This document shows, piece by piece, positions 2,800 to 9,395 of a stretch of 9,395 bases of DNA. The translations under genes were made by a program, and so were the position numbers. This stretch comes from a virus (lineage: Duplodnaviria; Heunggongvirae; Uroviricota; Caudoviricetes): the IMG/VR virus record IMGVR_UViG_2690316166_000023; one strand, 5' to 3'. Within the stretch, counting starts at the first letter, position 1. Each line of letters begins with the position of its first letter. The notes below the pieces were generated by a model that ran no database searches, was not told the origin of the DNA, and saw nothing but the letters and a program-made list of their open reading frames with translations.

Positions 2800-2934
2800 C
2801 CTGCGTCCCGTCAAAGGGAACCCCATTAATATTTCTTGGGGTGGCGAGTCTATTCGCGGCAACGGCGGTGCCGTCCGATGGCAGAGCATTCGCCGCCCTG
2901 TTTACCGTTTCCCGTAAACCGAGGTTTTCAGGAA
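2800..2934 (-). CDS. 5' portion of a tail-fibre variable (C-terminal) segment that begins at the crossover site and has no start codon of its own; continues leftward into masked sequence
   Basis: Minus-strand frame with first codon bases at 2938, 2935, ... reads NRVNPGFPENLGLRETVNRAANALPSDGTAVAANRLATPRNINGVPFDGTQ. The LGL-ETVNRA-N motif is, as I recall it, the conserved junction of P2 H / Mu S / P1 S-type tail fibres. In-frame TAA at 2954-2956 immediately upstream and no ATG/GTG/TTG before the masked block. Confidence 0.5.
2909..2934. other. Site-specific recombination crossover site for the adjacent invertase (gix/pix/hix/cix-type, 12-2-12 imperfect dyad)
   Basis: TTCCCGTAAACC-GA-GGTTTTCAGGAA; the right half is the reverse complement of TTCCTGAAAACC, almost identical to the left half. 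Closely resembles the Mu gix site as I recall it (TTCCTGTAAACCGAGGTTTTGGATAA). Lies 65 bp upstream of the invertase start and inside the tail-fibre motif. Confidence 0.75.
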
Positions 2935-2999
2935 AGCCAGGATTAACTCTGTTTTATTCCTCATGCGACAATTCCGGCTTTTTATAATAAGGAAATCGT

Positions 3000-3572
3000 A
3001 TGCTGATTGGGTATATCAGGGTGTCAACAAATGACCAGAATACGGCGCTACAAAGAAATGCGCTGGAATGTGCAGGATGTGAGCTGTTTTTCGAAGACAG
3101 AATAAGCGGTAAGACAAGGGAGCGTCCCGGACTTAAACGCGCATTAAAGCGACTCCGGCCAGGGGATACCCTGCTGGTCTGGAAACTGGATCGCCTTGGA
3201 CGCAGTATGCAGCACCTTGTCCTTTTAACAGAAGAACTCCGGCAACGCGGCGTTAACTTCCGCAGCATTACGGACAATATTGATACATCCACTCCCATGG
3301 GACGTTTCTTTTTCCATATAATGGGCGCGCTGGCGGAAATGGAGCGGGAACTCATTATTGAACGTACACGCGCGGGTCTTGCTGCTGCCCGTGCTCAGGG
3401 GCGTCATGGCGGCAGACCTCAGAAACTGACAGAGAAAGAGCGGGAGCAAATCGCCCGTTTGCTGGCTAATGGCGAGTCCCGTAAACAAATCGCACTGATA
3501 TTTGATATTGGCCTTTCCACCCTTTATCGTTATTTTCCTGCCTCACCAGCTCCGTCACCAAAAGTACCGTGA
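3000..3572 (+). CDS. Serine recombinase: DNA invertase of the Gin/Pin/Hin/Cin family
   Basis: 190-aa ORF, ATG 3000 with AAGGAAA ribosome-binding site upstream. N-terminus MLIGYIRVSTNDQNT (catalytic Ser in RVST), ...GDTLLVWKLDRLGRS..., ...PMGRFFFHIMGALAEMERELIIERT..., C-terminal HTH (...IALIFDIGLSTLYRYF), all hallmark invertase blocks. Adjacent crossover site. Confidence 0.95.
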   Translation: MLIGYIRVSTNDQNTALQRNALECAGCELFFEDRISGKTRERPGLKRALKRLRPGDTLLVWKLDRLGRSMQHLVLLTEELRQRGVNFRSITDNIDTSTPMGRFFFHIMGALAEMERELIIERTRAGLAAARAQGRHGGRPQKLTEKEREQIARLLANGESRKQIALIFDIGLSTLYRYFPASPAPSPKVP

Positions 3573-3657
3573 CGCTTTTTTGAATTTCCGCAAAACACAT
3601 ATTTTTCAGCGGTCGCTATTCTGACTCTGTTTAATTCAGAAACAGGCAGAAAAGACG

Positions 3658-5712
3658 ATGTCAGACTCCAAGTGGAAAATGCTCTCCGCCATGCCCGGAG
3701 AGTTTTCAGTCAAGGTTGCCGGTGGCACGGTGGCATTTATTGAAAGCCCTTTCCGCCCTTCGGGTAATAAAGGGGGGATCACCTTCGCAGACTGCGTGAT
3801 CCGCTTCAGCACGAAAGAGCCATTATGGGTAATGCCGGTATCCGGTAATCCCAGTGCAGAAATCACCAGTTCAGGCGTGACTGGCATCATTCCAATCACA
3901 TCTGACGTGGCCGGAACGCTCACGCCCTCCGACTGGAATGCACCGGATAACGCCGGGCCTTCCGGTAGCACGAATGGCAGCAGTTCAGAGCCGGAATATT
4001 ACTTTGTTGTCATTCTCGCGGGTCAGTCAAATGGCATGGCCTACGGCGAGGGGCTGCCGTTACCGGATTCGTTTGACCGCCCGGACCCACGCATTAAGCA
4101 ACTGGCACGCCGCAGTACGGTAACGCCCAACGGTACGTCGTGTACATACAACGACATCATTCCGGCAGACCACTGCCTGCATGATGTTCAGGATATGAGC
4201 GGGATAAACCACCCGAAAGCTGATCTGGCAAAAGGCCAGTACGGGACTGTCGGTCAGGGGTTGCATATTGCCAAAAAACTGCTTCCCTATATCCCACAGA
4301 ATGCCGGGATACTTCTGGTGCCCTGTTGTCGTGGCGGGTCAGCATTCACCACTGGAGCCGACGGCTCATTCAGTGAGGCCAGCGGTGCTTCCGCTGATTC
4401 TTCACGCTGGGGGGCCGGTAAACCTCTGTATCAGGACCTGGTAAGCCGCACCAAAGTCGCGCTGGCGAAAAACCCGAAAAACAAACTTCTGGCTGTGGTC
4501 TGGATGCAGGGAGAGGCAGACCTTGCCTCAGGAAGCCAGCAGCATAATAGTTTATTCACGGCCATGGTTCAGCAGTTCAGAACTGACCTGGCTCCGCTTG
4601 CTGCGCAGTGCGTGAGTGGAAATGCCACCACGGTGCCGTGGATTTGCGGTGATACCACGTATTACTGGAAAAACGCTGGCACCGATAAATATGAGGCAGT
4701 ATACGGTGGCTACAAAGGCAAGGAAGCACAGAAAATTTTCTTTGTACCGTTCCTGACGGATGAGAATGGACAGAGCACGCCAACGAATGCTCCGGCGGAA
4801 GACCCGGATATTGTGGCTGTCGGGTATTACGGTGCAGCATCCCGAACCCAGGGCAGTTTTGTTTCGACACAGCGTGACAGCCATTTCAGCTCATGGGCAC
4901 GCAGGGGCGTCATTTCAGACCGTCTGGCCTCAGCTATTATGCTCCATGCAGGGCGCACGGCTGAACTGATGCGCGGGCAGACCGTGACACCACCGGATGA
5001 GAAGCCGTCACCTGATACACCATCAAAACCGTCCACGCCACCCGCAGACACCACGACGATGAGTACGCTATTTGCTTACCGGGCATCTGAGTCTGAAGGA
5101 CGGTTGACACCACAGGGTTGGGCTGCCGGAGGTGGCAAGGCTCAAATCGTGGATGATGCCGGAGCCAGCGGGGGTAAGGCAATGAAACTGACCAAGGAAA
5201 CAGGAAGAGCCCTCTGGTACCTTGAGCATGATGCTGGTAATGGTGCGGACCTGCTGGGTAAAGGTGGTCTTGTCAGTTGTCGTTTTAAACTCGATGGCGC
5301 GCTTACGGCTAATCAGTACGCACTGGCGCTGTACTGGCCGGTTTCTGCCCTGCCGCAAGGGGTTACTCTGGAAGGAAATGCCGGTCATAACCTGCTGGCA
5401 TCGTTCTACGTACAGAGCGATGCCACAGACCTTAACGTGATGTATCACAAAGGAAACACGGCGCAGAACACGAAGCTGGGGTCATTCGGCGCATTTAATA
5501 ACGAATGGCATACGCTGGGCTTCCGTTTTGCCGGTAACAACAGTATTGAGGTGACGCCGGTCATTGATGGTAAGGACGGGACACCATTCATGCTGTCGCA
5601 GTCTCCGGTCGGCACGTTTACGGCAGACAAGTTGCGCGTGACCGATATCACTAAAAATGCGACTTACCCGGTACTGATTGACAGTATCGTGGTGGAAGTG
5701 AATAACGCGTAA
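3658..5712 (+). CDS. SGNH/SASA-family carbohydrate O-acetylesterase, three-part architecture resembling prophage NanS-p sialate O-acetylesterases
   Basis: 684-aa ORF. SGNH blocks visible: block I VILAGQSNGMAYGEG (catalytic Ser), block II CCRGGSAF, block III WMQGEADL, block V RDSHFS (Asp/His). Preceded by a ~110-aa S/T/G-rich N-terminal region and followed by a Pro/Thr-rich linker (TPPDEKPSPDTPSKPSTPPADTTT, about nt 4980-5060) and a ~220-aa C-terminal domain. Weak ribosome-binding site. The enzyme class is well supported; the sialate substrate is inferred. Confidence 0.8.
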   Translation: MSDSKWKMLSAMPGEFSVKVAGGTVAFIESPFRPSGNKGGITFADCVIRFSTKEPLWVMPVSGNPSAEITSSGVTGIIPITSDVAGTLTPSDWNAPDNAGPSGSTNGSSSEPEYYFVVILAGQSNGMAYGEGLPLPDSFDRPDPRIKQLARRSTVTPNGTSCTYNDIIPADHCLHDVQDMSGINHPKADLAKGQYGTVGQGLHIAKKLLPYIPQNAGILLVPCCRGGSAFTTGADGSFSEASGASADSSRWGAGKPLYQDLVSRTKVALAKNPKNKLLAVVWMQGEADLASGSQQHNSLFTAMVQQFRTDLAPLAAQCVSGNATTVPWICGDTTYYWKNAGTDKYEAVYGGYKGKEAQKIFFVPFLTDENGQSTPTNAPAEDPDIVAVGYYGAASRTQGSFVSTQRDSHFSSWARRGVISDRLASAIMLHAGRTAELMRGQTVTPPDEKPSPDTPSKPSTPPADTTTMSTLFAYRASESEGRLTPQGWAAGGGKAQIVDDAGASGGKAMKLTKETGRALWYLEHDAGNGADLLGKGGLVSCRFKLDGALTANQYALALYWPVSALPQGVTLEGNAGHNLLASFYVQSDATDLNVMYHKGNTAQNTKLGSFGAFNNEWHTLGFRFAGNNSIEVTPVIDGKDGTPFMLSQSPVGTFTADKLRVTDITKNATYPVLIDSIVVEVNNA

Positions 5713-5726
5713 GCAGGATAAAAAAA

Positions 5727-5761
5727 TGCCGCCGGTAAGGGAAAACAAGAAACCGGCGGCA
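5727..5761. terminator. GC-rich stem-loop immediately after the esterase stop; a run of T follows it on the minus strand only
   Basis: Stem TGCCGCCGGT (5727-5736) pairs with ACCGGCGGCA (5752-5761), 15-nt loop. Flanked by AAAAAAA (5720-5726) upstream and AAAAAG downstream, so the canonical hairpin-plus-U-tract geometry exists for leftward transcription; rightward it is a hairpin without a U-tract. Confidence 0.4.
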
Positions 5762-5856
5762 AAAAGATCGTTATATCCAAAGCAAAAAATGCAGTGCACC
5801 TTTTTACCTAACAGATATTACCGGTGTCAACACCATGTCAATAATTGGGAGGGATA

Positions 5857-6039
5857 ATGACATTTTTACAGCTTATTTTATTGTATTTCTGCACGGCAGT
5901 ATGTGCGTTATATCTGGTGAGTGGTGGTTATAAGGCCATCAGAAATTATGTTCGCCGCAAAATTGAGGACGCAGCAGCTGAAAAACTCAGTAAAACAGCG
6001 CAGGTAACTCCGCTCCCAAAAGACCCGACCCAGCCCTGA
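5857..6039 (+). CDS. Small hypothetical membrane protein (60 aa): one N-terminal hydrophobic helix and a basic tail
   Basis: ATG 5857 four nt after GGGAGGG (5847-5853); MTFLQLILLYFCTAVCALYLVSGGYKAIRNYVRRKIEDAAAEKL... The ORF-track start at 5845 is a TTG with no ribosome-binding site. No family recognised. Confidence 0.5.
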   Translation: MTFLQLILLYFCTAVCALYLVSGGYKAIRNYVRRKIEDAAAEKLSKTAQVTPLPKDPTQP

Positions 6040-6074
6040 TTGCAGGGCTTTATTCCCGCATAAGGAGGATATAC

Positions 6075-6329
6075 ATGCCAGAAATTAAAGGCACCGTCAC
6101 TGAAGACCTGGTAAAACAGGCACTGTATTCCGGTGAAGTAAATAAGTTGCTGAAAGCGCAGGTCCGCAAGGATTTTGAGGCACAAATCGACACTTACGTT
6201 GATGAAGTGCTGGCAAAACTTATTGGGCCAGCAGTTGCGGCCAGTGATGCTGATAATGAGCCGAAAACCGACGCGCAGCCAGAGCAACCAGACCCGGCTC
6301 AGCCCGGAACTGACAGTACCATGATGTAA
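6075..6329 (+). CDS. Small hypothetical acidic protein (84 aa): helical N-terminus and an Asp/Glu/Pro/Gln-rich, probably disordered, C-terminus
   Basis: ATG 6075 with near-consensus ribosome-binding site AAGGAGG (6062-6068, 6-nt spacer); 35 nt downstream of the previous ORF on the same strand, so probably one operon. No family recognised. Confidence 0.6.
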   Translation: MPEIKGTVTEDLVKQALYSGEVNKLLKAQVRKDFEAQIDTYVDEVLAKLIGPAVAASDADNEPKTDAQPEQPDPAQPGTDSTMM

Positions 6330-6386
6330 CAATACAAACCGGTGGTGTCCTCTGCCGGTTTGACACTAATGAAAACATCTTTGCCG

Positions 6387-6427
6387 CTATCCAGCCATAT
6401 GTAATCGCTGGATAGTATTTCGTATTC
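6387..6427 (+). terminator. Candidate intrinsic terminator for the two-gene small operon
   Basis: Inverted repeat CTATCCAGC (6387-6395) / GCTGGATAG (6407-6415), 11-nt loop, followed by T-rich TATTTCGTATTC. A second imperfect hairpin sits at about 6335-6360. Confidence 0.35.
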
Positions 6428-6496
6428 AGAAATATAGCTGCTTATGGAGCAGTCAATCCTGCTTCCCCATCCGGGCAGGCAAATGAACCGGTATCA

Positions 6497-6790
6497 TTAG
6501 TCCGATTCACGCTTTTGTAGAATCGTTCCCAGAATGCTATACAGCTCATTAGCCTGTTGCTCCATCATTGAGACGGAGGCTATACGGTGCAAAGTGATTT
6601 CAGGAGGTGGCACACCTCCATCTTCTTGCTGTGGAGGAAAAACATAAGATTTAATAAAAAAGTTGAAGCATATGAACTCTCCCGCACTCGAACTGTATTT
6701 GCAGGCATCTGAATAATCGGAAAAATAATCATTATAGATTTCCGCATTTTCAATCATTTTTCGATTTCTCGTCGTTACATGATTGTCCAT
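6497..6790 (-). CDS. Hypothetical protein (97 aa), AT-rich, transcribed divergently from com-mom
   Basis: Minus-strand ATG at 6790-6788 with AAGAGG 5 nt upstream (complement of about 6796-6801). MDNHVTTRNRKMIENAEIYNDYFSDYSDACKYSS...; no family recognised. Composition appears more AT-rich than the flanking genes. Confidence 0.55.
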   Translation of the reverse strand: MDNHVTTRNRKMIENAEIYNDYFSDYSDACKYSSSAGEFICFNFFIKSYVFPPQQEDGGVPPPEITLHRIASVSMMEQQANELYSILGTILQKRESD

Positions 6791-6978
6791 AGCAGCCTCT
6801 TACGCTGGCAATTAACCAATTGACTTCTATAAATTAGTTGATTTGTTTGCTTTGCGGTATTCAAATGTACAATCATTCAGCACTTATGCGTTACAGCACC
6901 GTTTAAAATTAGTGATCAAACTCATAAATTTTCGCTAATGACATTTCGTGTTATTTGTTGTATCAATTAAATAAATCA

Positions 6979-7003
6979 AATCGATCGTTTTTGTCGATCG
7001 ATT
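6979..7003. promoter_or_regulatory. Palindromic operator-like element with two Dam (GATC) sites upstream of com-mom
   Basis: AATCGATCG-tttttgt-CGATCGATT: 9-bp arms in perfect inverted repeat, GATC at 6984-6987 and 6996-6999, a third GATC at 6914-6917. About 45-65 bp upstream of the com start. Mu mom is known to be controlled through clustered GATC sites whose methylation blocks OxyR binding. Confidence 0.45.
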
Positions 7004-7046
7004 GAGTGATAAAGATATCAACAACAAAGCAGGAGGTTATGCGGCC

Positions 7047-7247
7047 ATGTATCGAAACATACGGTGCCGACATTGTAACAAGCTACTGGCACGAGCCAGC
7101 TTCAGTTATCTGGAAGTTAAATGTCCGCGCTGTAAAACCCTCAATCAAATCACATCTCAGAGCGCCACAGAGCACCCCACATACACAAGGAAATCCTGTC
7201 GTGGGGAACAGAAAGCAAGTTACATCCCGTATCATCAGCACGCCTGA
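7047..7247 (+). CDS. com: Com-like zinc-finger translational activator
   Basis: 66-aa ORF, ATG 7047 ten nt after AGGAGG (7031-7036). [30 protein letters not shown]... has the Cys-X2-Cys...Cys-X2-Cys pattern and aligns block-wise with Mu Com as I recall it (MKSIRCKNCNKLL...IEIRCPRCK...). Its 3' end overlaps the following mom-like frame. The ORF-track start at 7002 is a TTG extension. Confidence 0.8.
7175..7206 (+). promoter_or_regulatory. RNA hairpin that would sequester the putative mom GTG start codon and its ribosome-binding site (candidate Com-responsive translational switch)
   Basis: CCCCAC (7175-7180) is the exact complement of GTGGGG (7201-7206); the 20-nt loop holds AAGGAAA; the GTG at 7201-7203 is in the mom frame and inside the 3' arm. 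It lies inside the 3' end of com, the arrangement known for Mu. Confidence 0.4.
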
Positions 7248-7938
7248 ACTTATTCACTATAACGACAATATCGTCGGTTATGGCTCCCGTGAGTTACGGG
7301 TTGAGACAATAAGTTGCTGGCTGGCCCGGCTGGTCGTCGTCAATAAACATTACAGCCATCGTTTCGTAAATAATTCCTACCTTCATCTGGGCATATTTTC
7401 AGAACGGGAGCTGGTTGGCGTAATGCAATGGGGTTATGCCCTTAATCCAAACAATGGTGCACGCGTCGTAACTGGCACGCAGAACCGCGAATATATGGAG
7501 CTTAACCGGTTATGGCTGCATGACTGTATGCCGAGAAACTCCGAATCAAGGGCAATCAGTTACGCGCTCAAACTAATCAGACAACTTTATCCGCAGGTGC
7601 AGTGGGTTCAGTCGTTTGCAGATGAGCGTTGTGGCTGTCTTGGTGTCGTGTACCAGGCAAGCAATTTTGATTATGTAGGCAGTCATGAAACAACATTCTA
7701 TGAACTTGATGGCGAGTGGTATCACGAGATTTGCAAGAATGCAATCAAACGAGGAGGACAGCGAGGTGAACATCTGCGGGCTAATATCGACAGAGCCAGT
7801 GTTCATAAATTCCGTCAGTTTCGTTACATCCGGTTTCTGGACAAGAGAGCCAGAAAACGCCTTAACACAAAGCTATTCAAAGTCCAGCCTTACCCAAAAC
7901 CACAAACAGTTAAAACTGGTTTGAAAGAGAGTGAATGA
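7201..7938 (+). CDS. mom: Mom-like DNA modification protein (adenine-modifying, acyltransferase-like); start uncertain: GTG 7201 proposed, maximal ORF begins at 7006
   Basis: Long ORF ending at 7938 that overlaps com in another frame, which is the signature com-mom arrangement. GTG 7201 has AAGGA 8 nt upstream and sits in the hairpin, giving 245 aa (Mu Mom is about 230 aa). Assignment rests on context; I cannot recall Mom sequence well enough to align it. Confidence 0.6.
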
Positions 7939-7995
7939 ACGCTTAAAAACTCATTCTAAAACTCAAAAGAAAAGCGCCGATTTAGTATCAAATAA

Positions 7996-8862
<867 letters not shown>

Positions 8863-8870
8863 GTAACAGT

Positions 8871-8950
8871 GCCGGATGCGGCGTGAACGCCTTATCCGGC
8901 CTACATGTCGCACGAACCAGGAAGGCCCGATAAGCGCAGCGCATCGGGCA
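8871..8950. repeat. REP/BIME element: two palindromic units in the convergent intergenic gap
   Basis: GCCGGATGCGGCGTGAACGCCTTATCCGGCCTACA (8871-8905) is a textbook E. coli-type REP; the second unit GCCCGATAAGCGCAGCGCATCGGGC (8925-8949) is an inverted-repeat variant. Confidence 0.75.
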
Positions 8951-8975: not shown

Positions 8976-9395
8976 TCAAAGAAACCATTCCGGCTTAACG
9001 CCAAATCGGGCTGAAAGTGCCTTAATGTGGGATATCGTCAGGGATCGTTGTCCAGACAAAATCTGACTGACCAGGGATTTAGAGCCGATTTCGTTCTTCA
9101 AATCCGCATAGGTCAGATTATGTTGATCAATCAGCGTGCGAAGTAACGCCACGCCAACAGGCATTGCCGCAACGGCTTTGTCGAACTCTGCAAACTCTTG
9201 GTTGTTGTTTTCATATTCTGCAATGCGGCTCGCCAGAAAGTCGATAAGTGGATTGGTGTCATCTTCTTCAATCAAATATTCGACCAGTTCCAGTGCTTCA
9301 CGATAATCATCTTCTGAGTCACTACCTCCCAGAAAGGGGACTGCATTGACCAGTTCTCTTGTTGCTTTAACAGCGCGTGCAGCATTAGCAGTCAT
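8976..9395 (-). CDS. HigA-family antitoxin / XRE-type HTH regulator
   Basis: 139-aa minus-strand ORF whose ATG is the last three bases of the window. MTANAARAVKATRELVNAVPFLGG...NPLIDFLASRIAEYE...EFAEFDKAVAAMPVGVALLRTLIDQHNLTYADL...IGSKSLVSQILSGQRSLTISHIKALSARFGVKPEWF matches E. coli HigA block for block as I recall it. The partner toxin gene would lie upstream, outside the window. Confidence 0.8.
   Translation of the reverse strand: MTANAARAVKATRELVNAVPFLGGSDSEDDYREALELVEYLIEEDDTNPLIDFLASRIAEYENNNQEFAEFDKAVAAMPVGVALLRTLIDQHNLTYADLKNEIGSKSLVSQILSGQRSLTISHIKALSARFGVKPEWFL

Follow-up and report, generated by a model that had tools for sequence, protein, structure and literature searches.

Phage-encoded sialate O-acetylesterases of the NanS-p type have been discussed almost solely as cargo of Shiga toxin (Stx) phages that enables enterohemorrhagic Escherichia coli (EHEC) to use O-acetylated sialic acids of mucin as nutrients. 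Several NanS-p alleles from lambdoid phages cleave 5-N-acetyl-9-O-acetylneuraminic acid (Neu5,9Ac2) and O-acetylated mucin glycans and allow growth on Neu5,9Ac2, and nanS-p ranks among the most strongly induced late genes in Stx phages, while NanS itself is a chromosomal rather than a phage gene (PMC8065619). NanS-p alleles have been characterized biochemically (PMC8065619, PMC10462455), and in phage phi24B the esterase is a processed structural protein whose DUF1737 domain forms a hexamer on capsid hexons (bioRxiv 10.64898/2026.04.10.717836). Here we describe a gene block that resembles this system in a different setting, namely between the gin and com-mom genes of a stretch of 9,395 nucleotides (IMG/VR record IMGVR_UViG_2690316166_000023; hereafter "the window") that covers the right end of an E. 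coli Mu-like prophage. Gene content, homology, synteny, distribution, domain mosaicism, and motif statistics make it probable that this region is an accessory right-end module of an Sp18-type Mu-like prophage, comprising a NanS-p trio that would be expressed late and whose esterase carries a Mu-specific N-terminal domain, together with a small variable slot.

In Mu, gin ends at position 35673 and com starts at position 35768, leaving a gap of 94 bp. In the window, four intact open reading frames (ORFs) lie between these genes, and these genes are likewise annotated in a RefSeq copy with 100% identity. Three are on the plus strand and encode a NanS-p-type sialate O-acetylesterase of 684 amino acids (3658-5712), a DUF1378 protein of 60 amino acids (5857-6039), and a DUF826 protein of 84 amino acids (6075-6329). 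The fourth, orf97 (97 amino acids; 6497-6790), is a divergent orphan on the minus strand. A first-pass annotation of this DNA had pointed to the near adjacency of gin and the mom region in Mu, to the presence here of an esterase gene, two small genes, and a divergent orphan between the invertase gene and com, and to a mixed base composition, and all three observations are confirmed. The GC content is 0.55 for the esterase gene, 0.45 for DUF1378, 0.50 for DUF826, 0.40 for orf97, and 0.34 for the spacer between orf97 and com, and the values for gin and mom are 0.52 and 0.46. The same annotation gave the region a span of 3573-6996. The region is real, but its right border is better placed near 6937, since it is from there that homology to the mom regulatory region of related phages resumes.

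The 684-residue protein is identified by homology as a sialate O-acetylesterase of the SGNH/SASA type that is joined to a carbohydrate-binding, lectin-like domain, with Pfam matches to SASA (PF03629; E value, 1.5e-13) and DUF6645 (PF20350; E value, 7.4e-68). The catalytic domain (residues ~114-440; 3997-4977, plus strand) lies between a Ser/Gly/Pro linker and a Pro/Thr linker. Residues 110-428 match E. coli NanS (PDB 3pt5; E value, 1.8e-117), and this alignment retains the GQSN and R-D-S-H blocks as defined for the NanS family (PMC10462455). The C-terminal lectin-like DUF6645 domain (residues 469-684; 5062-5709, plus strand) matches the C-terminal domain of phi24B NanS-p over residues 469-683 (PDB 6yp6; E value, 1.1e-97). 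Residues Y510, Y515, Y540, and F611 of the phi24B protein have been proposed to bind sugar (PMC10462455) and, by our own offset reading of the alignment, coincide with Y, Y, Y, and F in the window esterase. PHROGs assigns the protein to phrog_143 (E value, 1.8e-296), and a tblastn search returned 349 phage records with 50-67% identity, almost all of them from Stx phages or from lambdoid phages of other kinds. These records include 933W L0105, which we take to be the founding NanS-p and to which the esterase is 65% identical from residue 94 on. Because the SASA domain shows 63-80% identity in the comparison with lambdoid NanS-p alleles, we infer that the enzyme would remove 9-O-acetyl groups from Neu5,9Ac2 on mucin-type glycans.

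The DUF1378 protein (PF07125; E value, 1.2e-31; phrog_494) is encoded from an ATG at 5857, the start also chosen by RefSeq, that is preceded by a GGAGGG Shine-Dalgarno sequence. A hydrophobic segment at its N terminus leads into a basic stretch, and the protein is probably a single-pass membrane protein. It is 53% identical to the product of the ORF after nanS-p in 933W, and its homologs are found in 309 phage records. Wherever both matches are listed, the distance from the esterase gene to the DUF1378 gene downstream is 135-155 bp. YbcW of E. coli K-12 proved not to be a DUF1378 protein. The DUF826 protein (PF05696; E value, 6.4e-16; phrog_311) is acidic, with a helical N-terminal half and a tail of proline and acidic residues. 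It is 39% identical (E value, 5e-15) to the DUF826 protein encoded after DUF1378 in Stx2a_F451, for which RefSeq gives the order SASA esterase, DUF1378, DUF826, holin, and lysozyme. Given the homology to NanS and NanS-p and the gene order shared with lambdoid phages, these sequences identify the three genes as the known nanS-p gene set, for which annotations exist in hundreds of Stx phages and further lambdoid phages.

The esterase differs from its lambdoid relatives at its N terminus (residues 1 to ~95; 3658 to ~3942, plus strand), which precedes the Ser/Gly/Pro linker. Pfam finds no match to DUF1737 (PF08410) in this protein, an alignment of residues 1-92 to the N terminus of the 933W protein gives 20% identity, and the tblastn matches to lambdoid alleles begin at residues 94-112. 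A HMMER scan of 1.84 billion representative proteins with this N-domain returned only fragments of the same protein and a single homolog with 30% identity, which is encoded downstream of an invertase gene in a Mu-like prophage. No match was obtained when one genome per GTDB species was scanned with the N-domain and with P0019. AlphaFold models the domain as a small all-beta structure with its strands within residues 7-79. A new beta-rich domain of about 95 residues, confined to esterases of Mu-like prophages, takes the place of DUF1737.

Comparisons among Mu-borne alleles give different identities for the different domains of this protein. In the Sp18-type alleles L002, L039, and L042, the N-domain is 98% identical, whereas identity is 67% in the SASA domain and 42-45% in the C-terminal domain. 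The body of the L002 esterase is closer to 933W NanS-p (80% in the SASA domain and 81% in the C-terminal domain) than to the window esterase (69% and 74%). Because the domain-wise identities form a mosaic, the alignments indicate that the N terminus tracks phage type and that the parts for catalysis and sugar binding are swapped among alleles. The body of L039, the most divergent among the Mu-borne alleles, has no more than 62% identity to any phage record. An exchange with lambdoid alleles in the recent past was considered and rejected on this ground, so that the exchange is old or its donor is unsampled. By analogy with phi24B, the N-domain may anchor the esterase to the Mu-type virion or may otherwise adapt it to the phage type. 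A more ambitious proposal, which we offer as a tentative possibility, is that the N-domain is the virion-attachment adaptor of Mu-like myoviruses and the counterpart of DUF1737. NanS-type esterases would then be structural, mucus-directed decorations that phages of different morphotypes display by exchanging no more than the N-terminal anchor. DUF1378 and DUF826 would accompany the enzyme, not the lysis genes, as its dedicated helpers, and the slot would be a separate hotspot of small genes expressed in the lysogen.

Evidence bearing on the expression of the trio comes from the spacer between gin and the esterase gene. A late-promoter-like two-part element, TTGAATTTCCGCAAA-N22-TATTCT, is located at 3580-3622 on the plus strand, 36 nt upstream of the esterase ATG. 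The upstream part of this putative promoter is the TTCCGCAAA element and the downstream part is the TATTCT hexamer. A 20-nt element that directly follows the gin stop codon (CTTTTTTGAATTTCCGCAAA) is present in two exact copies in one whole prophage, where 0.03 would be expected. Its second copy lies in the spacer that separates a gene for a Mor/C-family activator from that for lysozyme, corresponding to the position of Plys in Mu. In Sp18, the element is also found upstream of the protease/scaffold gene (the PI position), and a TAYGCT-like hexamer follows 22-23 nt downstream at each site. When the pattern CTGAWATYCCGCAAA-N22/23-TAYGCT was built from no sites other than those that Sp18 has at the Plys and PI positions of Mu, it matched with up to 3 mismatches in a single further place, 3580-3622 of the window, with 0.01 matches expected per 38.8 kb. 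The element is kept in the gin-esterase spacer of both the window-type and Sp18 lineages and is similar to the parts of the Mu Plys and PI promoters that contain CCCGCA. It is probable, as judged from these motifs, that the esterase gene has its own late promoter at 3580-3622 that is predicted to depend on the activator C, and this suggests that the esterase is expressed as a late gene.

Just downstream of the esterase stop codon, a GC-rich hairpin can be read off the sequence at 5729-5760 (GCCGCCGGT-N14-ACCGGCGGC, with A7 on its left and A5 on its right). The hairpin is terminator-like on the minus strand. Because it has no T-tract on the plus strand, read-through from the esterase gene into those for DUF1378 and DUF826 is plausible. 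A consensus scan for promoters and terminators missed this hairpin, whose loop exceeds 8 nt, and found sites in numbers no greater than in shuffled sequence. Rfam and tRNA scans gave no match within the island.

The location and architecture of the esterase gene invite another explanation, in which the protein is a virion-borne, receptor-modifying enzyme that deacetylates O-antigen or capsule at adsorption, in the manner of SGNH-esterase tailspikes, and thus is functionally part of the tail-fiber module, with an effect on host range and not on the use of mucin. In every case the gene comes directly after tail-fiber, tail-fiber-assembly, or invertase genes, including in gin-less and distant relatives, its promoter is probably a late one, and its product has a swappable enzymatic and binding body behind a phage-type-specific N terminus, as do tail fibers and spikes. 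There is also a weak PHROGs match to a "tail protein" family (phrog_25867; E value, 1.2e-6), a "minor tail protein" of an Arthrobacter phage has a SASA domain too, and the same possibility has been raised for NanS-p in a published review (PMC8065619). We nevertheless consider this explanation unlikely, given that the catalytic domain is very close to chromosomal NanS (the E value of 1.8e-117 noted above) and shares 63-80% identity with the NanS-p alleles of lambdoid phages, several of them known to act on Neu5,9Ac2 and mucin O-acetyl groups (PMC8065619), and that no tail-attachment homology was found for the N-domain in the PDB, in BFVD, or within the prophage.

Under the preferred interpretation of the region as a NanS-p module adapted to a Mu-like phage, the phage activator C would switch on the late promoter at 3580-3622, and the trio would be expressed in the lytic cycle rather than in the resting lysogen, like nanS-p of Stx phages. 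The enzyme would then strip 9-O-acetyl groups from Neu5,9Ac2 on mucin-type glycans, and the N-domain would attach it to the Mu-type virion or suit it to this phage type in some other way. The slot beside the mom promoter holds one divergent, low-GC orphan, orf97.

The distribution of these genes indicates that they are not peculiar to the window. At least 80% of positions 2800-8100 is present in 25 of 5426 complete E. coli genomes, at differing chromosomal positions. Through a variant of orf97 with 79% identity, four more prophages were found, each at a different site, all of which have the order esterase, DUF1378, DUF826, orphan, com, and mom, although three of the four are without gin. A scan of IMG/VR with the N-domain yielded 34 loci, all of them Mu-like right ends, with esterases that are 53-100% identical to that of the window. 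Every locus that reaches past the esterase gene has DUF1378, and all but L011 and L016, where only a divergent DUF1378 gene follows the esterase gene, also have DUF826. The trio is present in at least three allelic types, including that of Sp18 from the O157 strain Sakai, and a Mu-like phage inserted in Stx phages also has the block. In distant Mu-like prophages, a SASA esterase gene directly follows the tail-fiber genes, and L009 and L048 among them share the N-domain family. The mom gene is present with at least 90% identity (the Sp18/window type) in ~228 complete E. coli genomes and in a divergent form (60-80%) in ~99, and the one divergent-mom locus examined is Mu-like, with gin adjoining com. 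The figure of ~228 of 5426, being derived from mom identity, is an upper bound for the prevalence of the family, and N-domain DNA was detected in 32 genomes.

On these comparisons, the trio belongs to the constant gene content of the Sp18 family of Mu-like prophages and does not represent a recent insertion at this site. The view that the cargo had been inserted here is not supported, since related phages routinely carry the same trio (in Sp18, in the IMG/VR loci, and in the genome loci) and the block is conserved across a whole lineage of Mu-like prophages. It is also very improbable that the block is inert, decaying passenger DNA that arrived from a lambdoid prophage by illegitimate recombination. 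Such an origin would fit a composition unlike that of the neighboring Mu genes, the abundance of homologs in co-resident lambdoid prophages, and the truncated esterases of L014, L027, and L035. However, it would not account for four ORFs that have stayed intact both here and in the 100% identical copies found at many sites in the chromosome, for a block that has been retained through more than 35% protein divergence in several lineages, for an N-domain that is lineage-specific and not lambdoid, or for the conserved promoter-like element upstream.

Several other features of the related prophages deserve mention. Many relatives are without gin (L005-L007, L015-L018, L020, L023, and L028-L030) and retain a remnant of its last 29 codons (Gin residues 162-190) along with the esterase block; these look like tail-fiber segments that have been locked in one orientation. 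Truncated or interrupted esterase genes occur in L014 (2271-4460), L027 (1959-4149), and L035 (from 4267). Such genes either match only residues 1-496 or 1-277, with a gap before DUF1378, or carry a frameshift after residue ~505, and they point to occasional decay of the enzyme. Some complete E. coli genomes have up to three copies of the DNA that encodes the N-domain, as expected from transposition or repeat infection. Finally, the 100% identical copy in strain JKHS016 lies in a rearranged prophage (L001, 8765-17870), with an inversion of a gene block that runs from head to tail tube and with the genes for the portal-like, tape-measure, and protease proteins broken up into pseudogenes.

The variable slot extends from the DUF826 gene to the conserved mom regulatory region (6330-6937). 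It is about 600 bp long here and 460-930 bp in related prophages, with a GC content of 0.38-0.42. At least four alternative small-ORF contents are found among these prophages: orf97 on the minus strand, a 64-residue CxxC...CxxC ORF, a plus-strand ORF of 66-78 residues with a minus-strand ORF of 68-76 residues, and a plus-strand ORF of 78 residues alone. The orf97 gene has an AAGAGG Shine-Dalgarno sequence 6 nt upstream of its ATG at 6790, and RefSeq gives its product as 86 amino acids, starting from Met12. Homologs are found only in E. coli and Shigella, with 79-100% identity and always at the same position. The ratio of nonsynonymous to synonymous substitution rates is 0.36 overall and, in comparison with the 79% variant, 0.20 in the core codons 13-87. 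These data indicate that orf97 is a real gene under purifying selection and an orphan of E. coli and Shigella. The AlphaFold model has a predicted local distance difference test (pLDDT) score of 50.7, and so could not be used for a fold search. A relationship to DUF3467 that seemed plausible by eye was rejected because hhalign against PF11950 members gave 0.65% probability and no Pfam match was found at E values of up to 10. The alternative slot ORFs have no significant Pfam match and no PADLOC match, and the 64-residue ORF has only subthreshold zinc-ribbon matches.

The first-pass annotation had proposed that the whole region is a plausible hotspot for an undescribed accessory or anti-phage system. 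As a hotspot, this description fits only the slot of about 600 bp between DUF826 and the mom promoter, with its four or more contents, and not the conserved trio. The proposed system is not supported, given that three of the four genes are the known NanS-p set and that none has a credible PADLOC match. A check with PADLOC-DB 2.0 gave no match for the esterase, DUF1378, orf97, or three alternative slot ORFs, and for DUF826 only a subthreshold partial match to PbeC (E value, 0.0076; 12.9 bits). A narrower version of the proposal is that the region, or at least the slot with orf97, is a hotspot for cargo that provides anti-phage defense, superinfection exclusion, or anti-defense. The low-GC slot contents, at least four in number and mostly opposing the late genes, are typical of accessory genes expressed by lysogens, orf97 is under purifying selection, and the adjoining gene has an anti-restriction function, be it mom or, in some relatives, a C5 methyltransferase gene. 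Even so, we think this improbable. The slot ORFs are single and very small (64-100 amino acids), neither orf97 nor the alternatives have a PADLOC match or a significant Pfam, PHROGs, NCBIfam, or PDB match, the three larger genes clearly form the NanS-p set, and position is the sole basis for the proposal. The idea of a defense island should be dropped. The slot next to the mom promoter does appear from these comparisons to be a genuine small hotspot, although no match identifies its cargo as defense.

A number of observations weigh against the interpretation of the region as a late-expressed NanS-p module with a Mu-specific anchor. With respect to expression, the pattern scan gave no match to the promoter motif at the PP and Pmom positions, Sp18's own site upstream of the esterase gene has 4 mismatches (0.24 matches expected by chance), and binding of C to the motif is an extrapolation from Mu. 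With respect to enzymatic function, cleavage of Neu5,9Ac2 and mucin glycans has been demonstrated for lambdoid alleles only (PMC8065619). The trio is not obligatory, since the distant relative L048 has the esterase without DUF1378 and DUF826. The N-domain model is of moderate confidence only (pLDDT, 71.5), and Foldseek found no significant structural neighbor for it in the PDB or BFVD (best E values, 0.045 and 0.0076), the matches being weak ones to cupin-like or small beta proteins with E values of 0.0076 or more. A search of the structural genes of the same prophage found no relative of the N-domain. With neither a structural match nor a relative in the prophage, the suggested virion anchoring draws on analogy and the mosaic pattern. 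Lastly, orf97 has no match in Pfam (E values of up to 10 included), PHROGs, NCBIfam, PADLOC, a PDB profile search, or a tblastn search of phages.

The flanks of the region are those of a Mu-like transposable prophage. Its left border is the gene for a gin-type serine DNA invertase (3000-3572, plus strand; Resolvase E value, 1.6e-51, plus HTH_7), and a 34-bp stretch just upstream of it (2895-2928) is 97% identical to Mu DNA at the annotated G-segment boundary. Farther upstream, positions 487-2799 are mostly masked by four runs of N (179, 1131, 499, and 353 bases) and correspond to the invertible tail-fiber segment, around which no inverted repeat could be detected. The right border of the extra DNA is the conserved mom regulatory region (6938-7046, plus strand), which is 92% identical to that of an Sp18-type phage. 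GATC sites are clustered at 6983 and 6996, with another at 6914, and a AATCAATTAAAT...CGATCG element is similar to the sequence that precedes the mom promoter of Mu. The com (7047-7247; Zn_ribbon_Com E value, 1.3e-12) and mom (7201-7938; Mom E value, 1.6e-77) genes follow on the plus strand, with coordinates from RefSeq and Pfam matches as given. Amino acid identities to the Mu proteins are 74% for Gin, 44% for Com, and 78% for Mom. The phage ends near 8044 (...GCGCTATA), next to host DNA that differs from copy to copy, and elsewhere the prophage carries head, tail, and Mor/C genes of the Mu type. Thus, gin, com-mom, a Mu-type right end that interrupts host DNA, and the occupation of many chromosomal sites are all found.

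In the terminal right end of this particular copy (8019-8044, junction at 8027/8028), 21 bp (TGAAATGCAAATCGGTATCAA-like) are missing between two GGTATCAAA repeats. These 21 bp are present in all five other copies examined (L001, L002, L005, L006, and L008), and their deletion may remove or respace a transposase-binding site, such that this copy is possibly unable to transpose. In some relatives, com is followed not by mom but by a gene for a 350-residue C-5 cytosine DNA methyltransferase (PF00145; E value, 2e-42), as seen in L002 (9266-10472), L027, L033, L038, and L048 (12628-13837). This gene overlaps com as mom does, which suggests that DNA-modification genes are interchangeable under Com control. 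Beyond the phage end, the prophage interrupts a host gene for a glycoside hydrolase family 1 (GH1) 6-phospho-beta-glucosidase, of which only profile positions 189-452 remain on the 3' side (8050-8862). The host DNA after GH1 includes a subthreshold Rfam match on the minus strand (8836-8901; 42.9 bits versus a gathering threshold of 59.5; E value, 3e-5) to naRNA4, a family of nucleoid-associated small RNAs. An antitoxin-type gene of the HTH_3 (HigA-like) class on the minus strand (8976-9395) runs off the end of the window.

Recognition of the trio in this setting has consequences for the study of NanS-p. Mu-like prophages are a further source of nanS-p, and copy-number counts and growth phenotypes that have been credited to Stx phages may miss them. 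If the claim for phi24B that the N terminus is a virion anchor is true, then the Mu-lineage N-domain should bind the Mu-type particle. Moreover, DUF1378 and DUF826 are linked to the esterase at a great distance from any lysis genes, which allows narrower hypotheses for both of these widespread families.

Among described systems, the lambdoid NanS-p loci (933W L0105/z1466; phi24B vb_24B_21, also called gp84) share with the window an esterase with a SASA/SGNH domain, a DUF6645 jelly-roll C-terminal domain, and flexible Ser/Pro-rich linkers, with DUF1378 and DUF826 next to it and probable late expression. They differ in that the lambdoid protein begins with DUF1737, which binds the capsid in phi24B, whereas the window esterase begins with an unrelated beta-rich domain of ~95 residues. 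The lambdoid gene lies between stx and the holin gene (933W, Stx2a_F451), but in the window it lies between the invertase gene and com-mom, the element is a Mu-like transposable myovirus rather than a lambdoid phage, and the lysis genes are ~16 kb away. Chromosomal NanS (YjhS; PDB 3pt5) aligns over its full length with residues 110-428 of the window esterase and is without the N-terminal and lectin-like domains. The right ends of Mu and D108 have homologous gin, com, and mom genes and a similar GATC-rich element upstream of com, but in the short interval between gin and com Mu carries no esterase, DUF1378, DUF826, or orphan gene. The SGNH-esterase tailspikes, such as gp63.1 of phage G7C, are virion-attached proteins with an N-terminal adaptor and an exchangeable enzymatic body that act on O-antigen. 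Their layout is like that of the Mu-borne esterase, with which they are not known to have a sequence relation, and virion attachment of the latter is conceivable by analogy only.

The closest relative is Sp18 of strain Sakai, in which ECs_4992 to ECs_4998 have the same order as the window: invertase, a 679-residue esterase, 60-residue and 81-residue proteins, a minus-strand ORF, com, and mom. The Sp18 trio (ECs_4993-4995) represents another allele, with 66-67% identity to the window for the esterase, 73% for DUF1378, and 72% for DUF826. Its N-domain belongs to the same family with 62% identity, and its slot holds a 64-residue zinc-ribbon-like ORF (ECs_4996) where the window has orf97. The block genes of Sp18 are annotated only as "hypothetical," and our literature search found no paper that ties them to NanS-p and no discussion of the Mu-like setting in the searchable literature. 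Relative to these systems, the NanS-p module itself is already known, and what is new is the Mu-specific N-domain, the probable late promoter, and the orphan slot.

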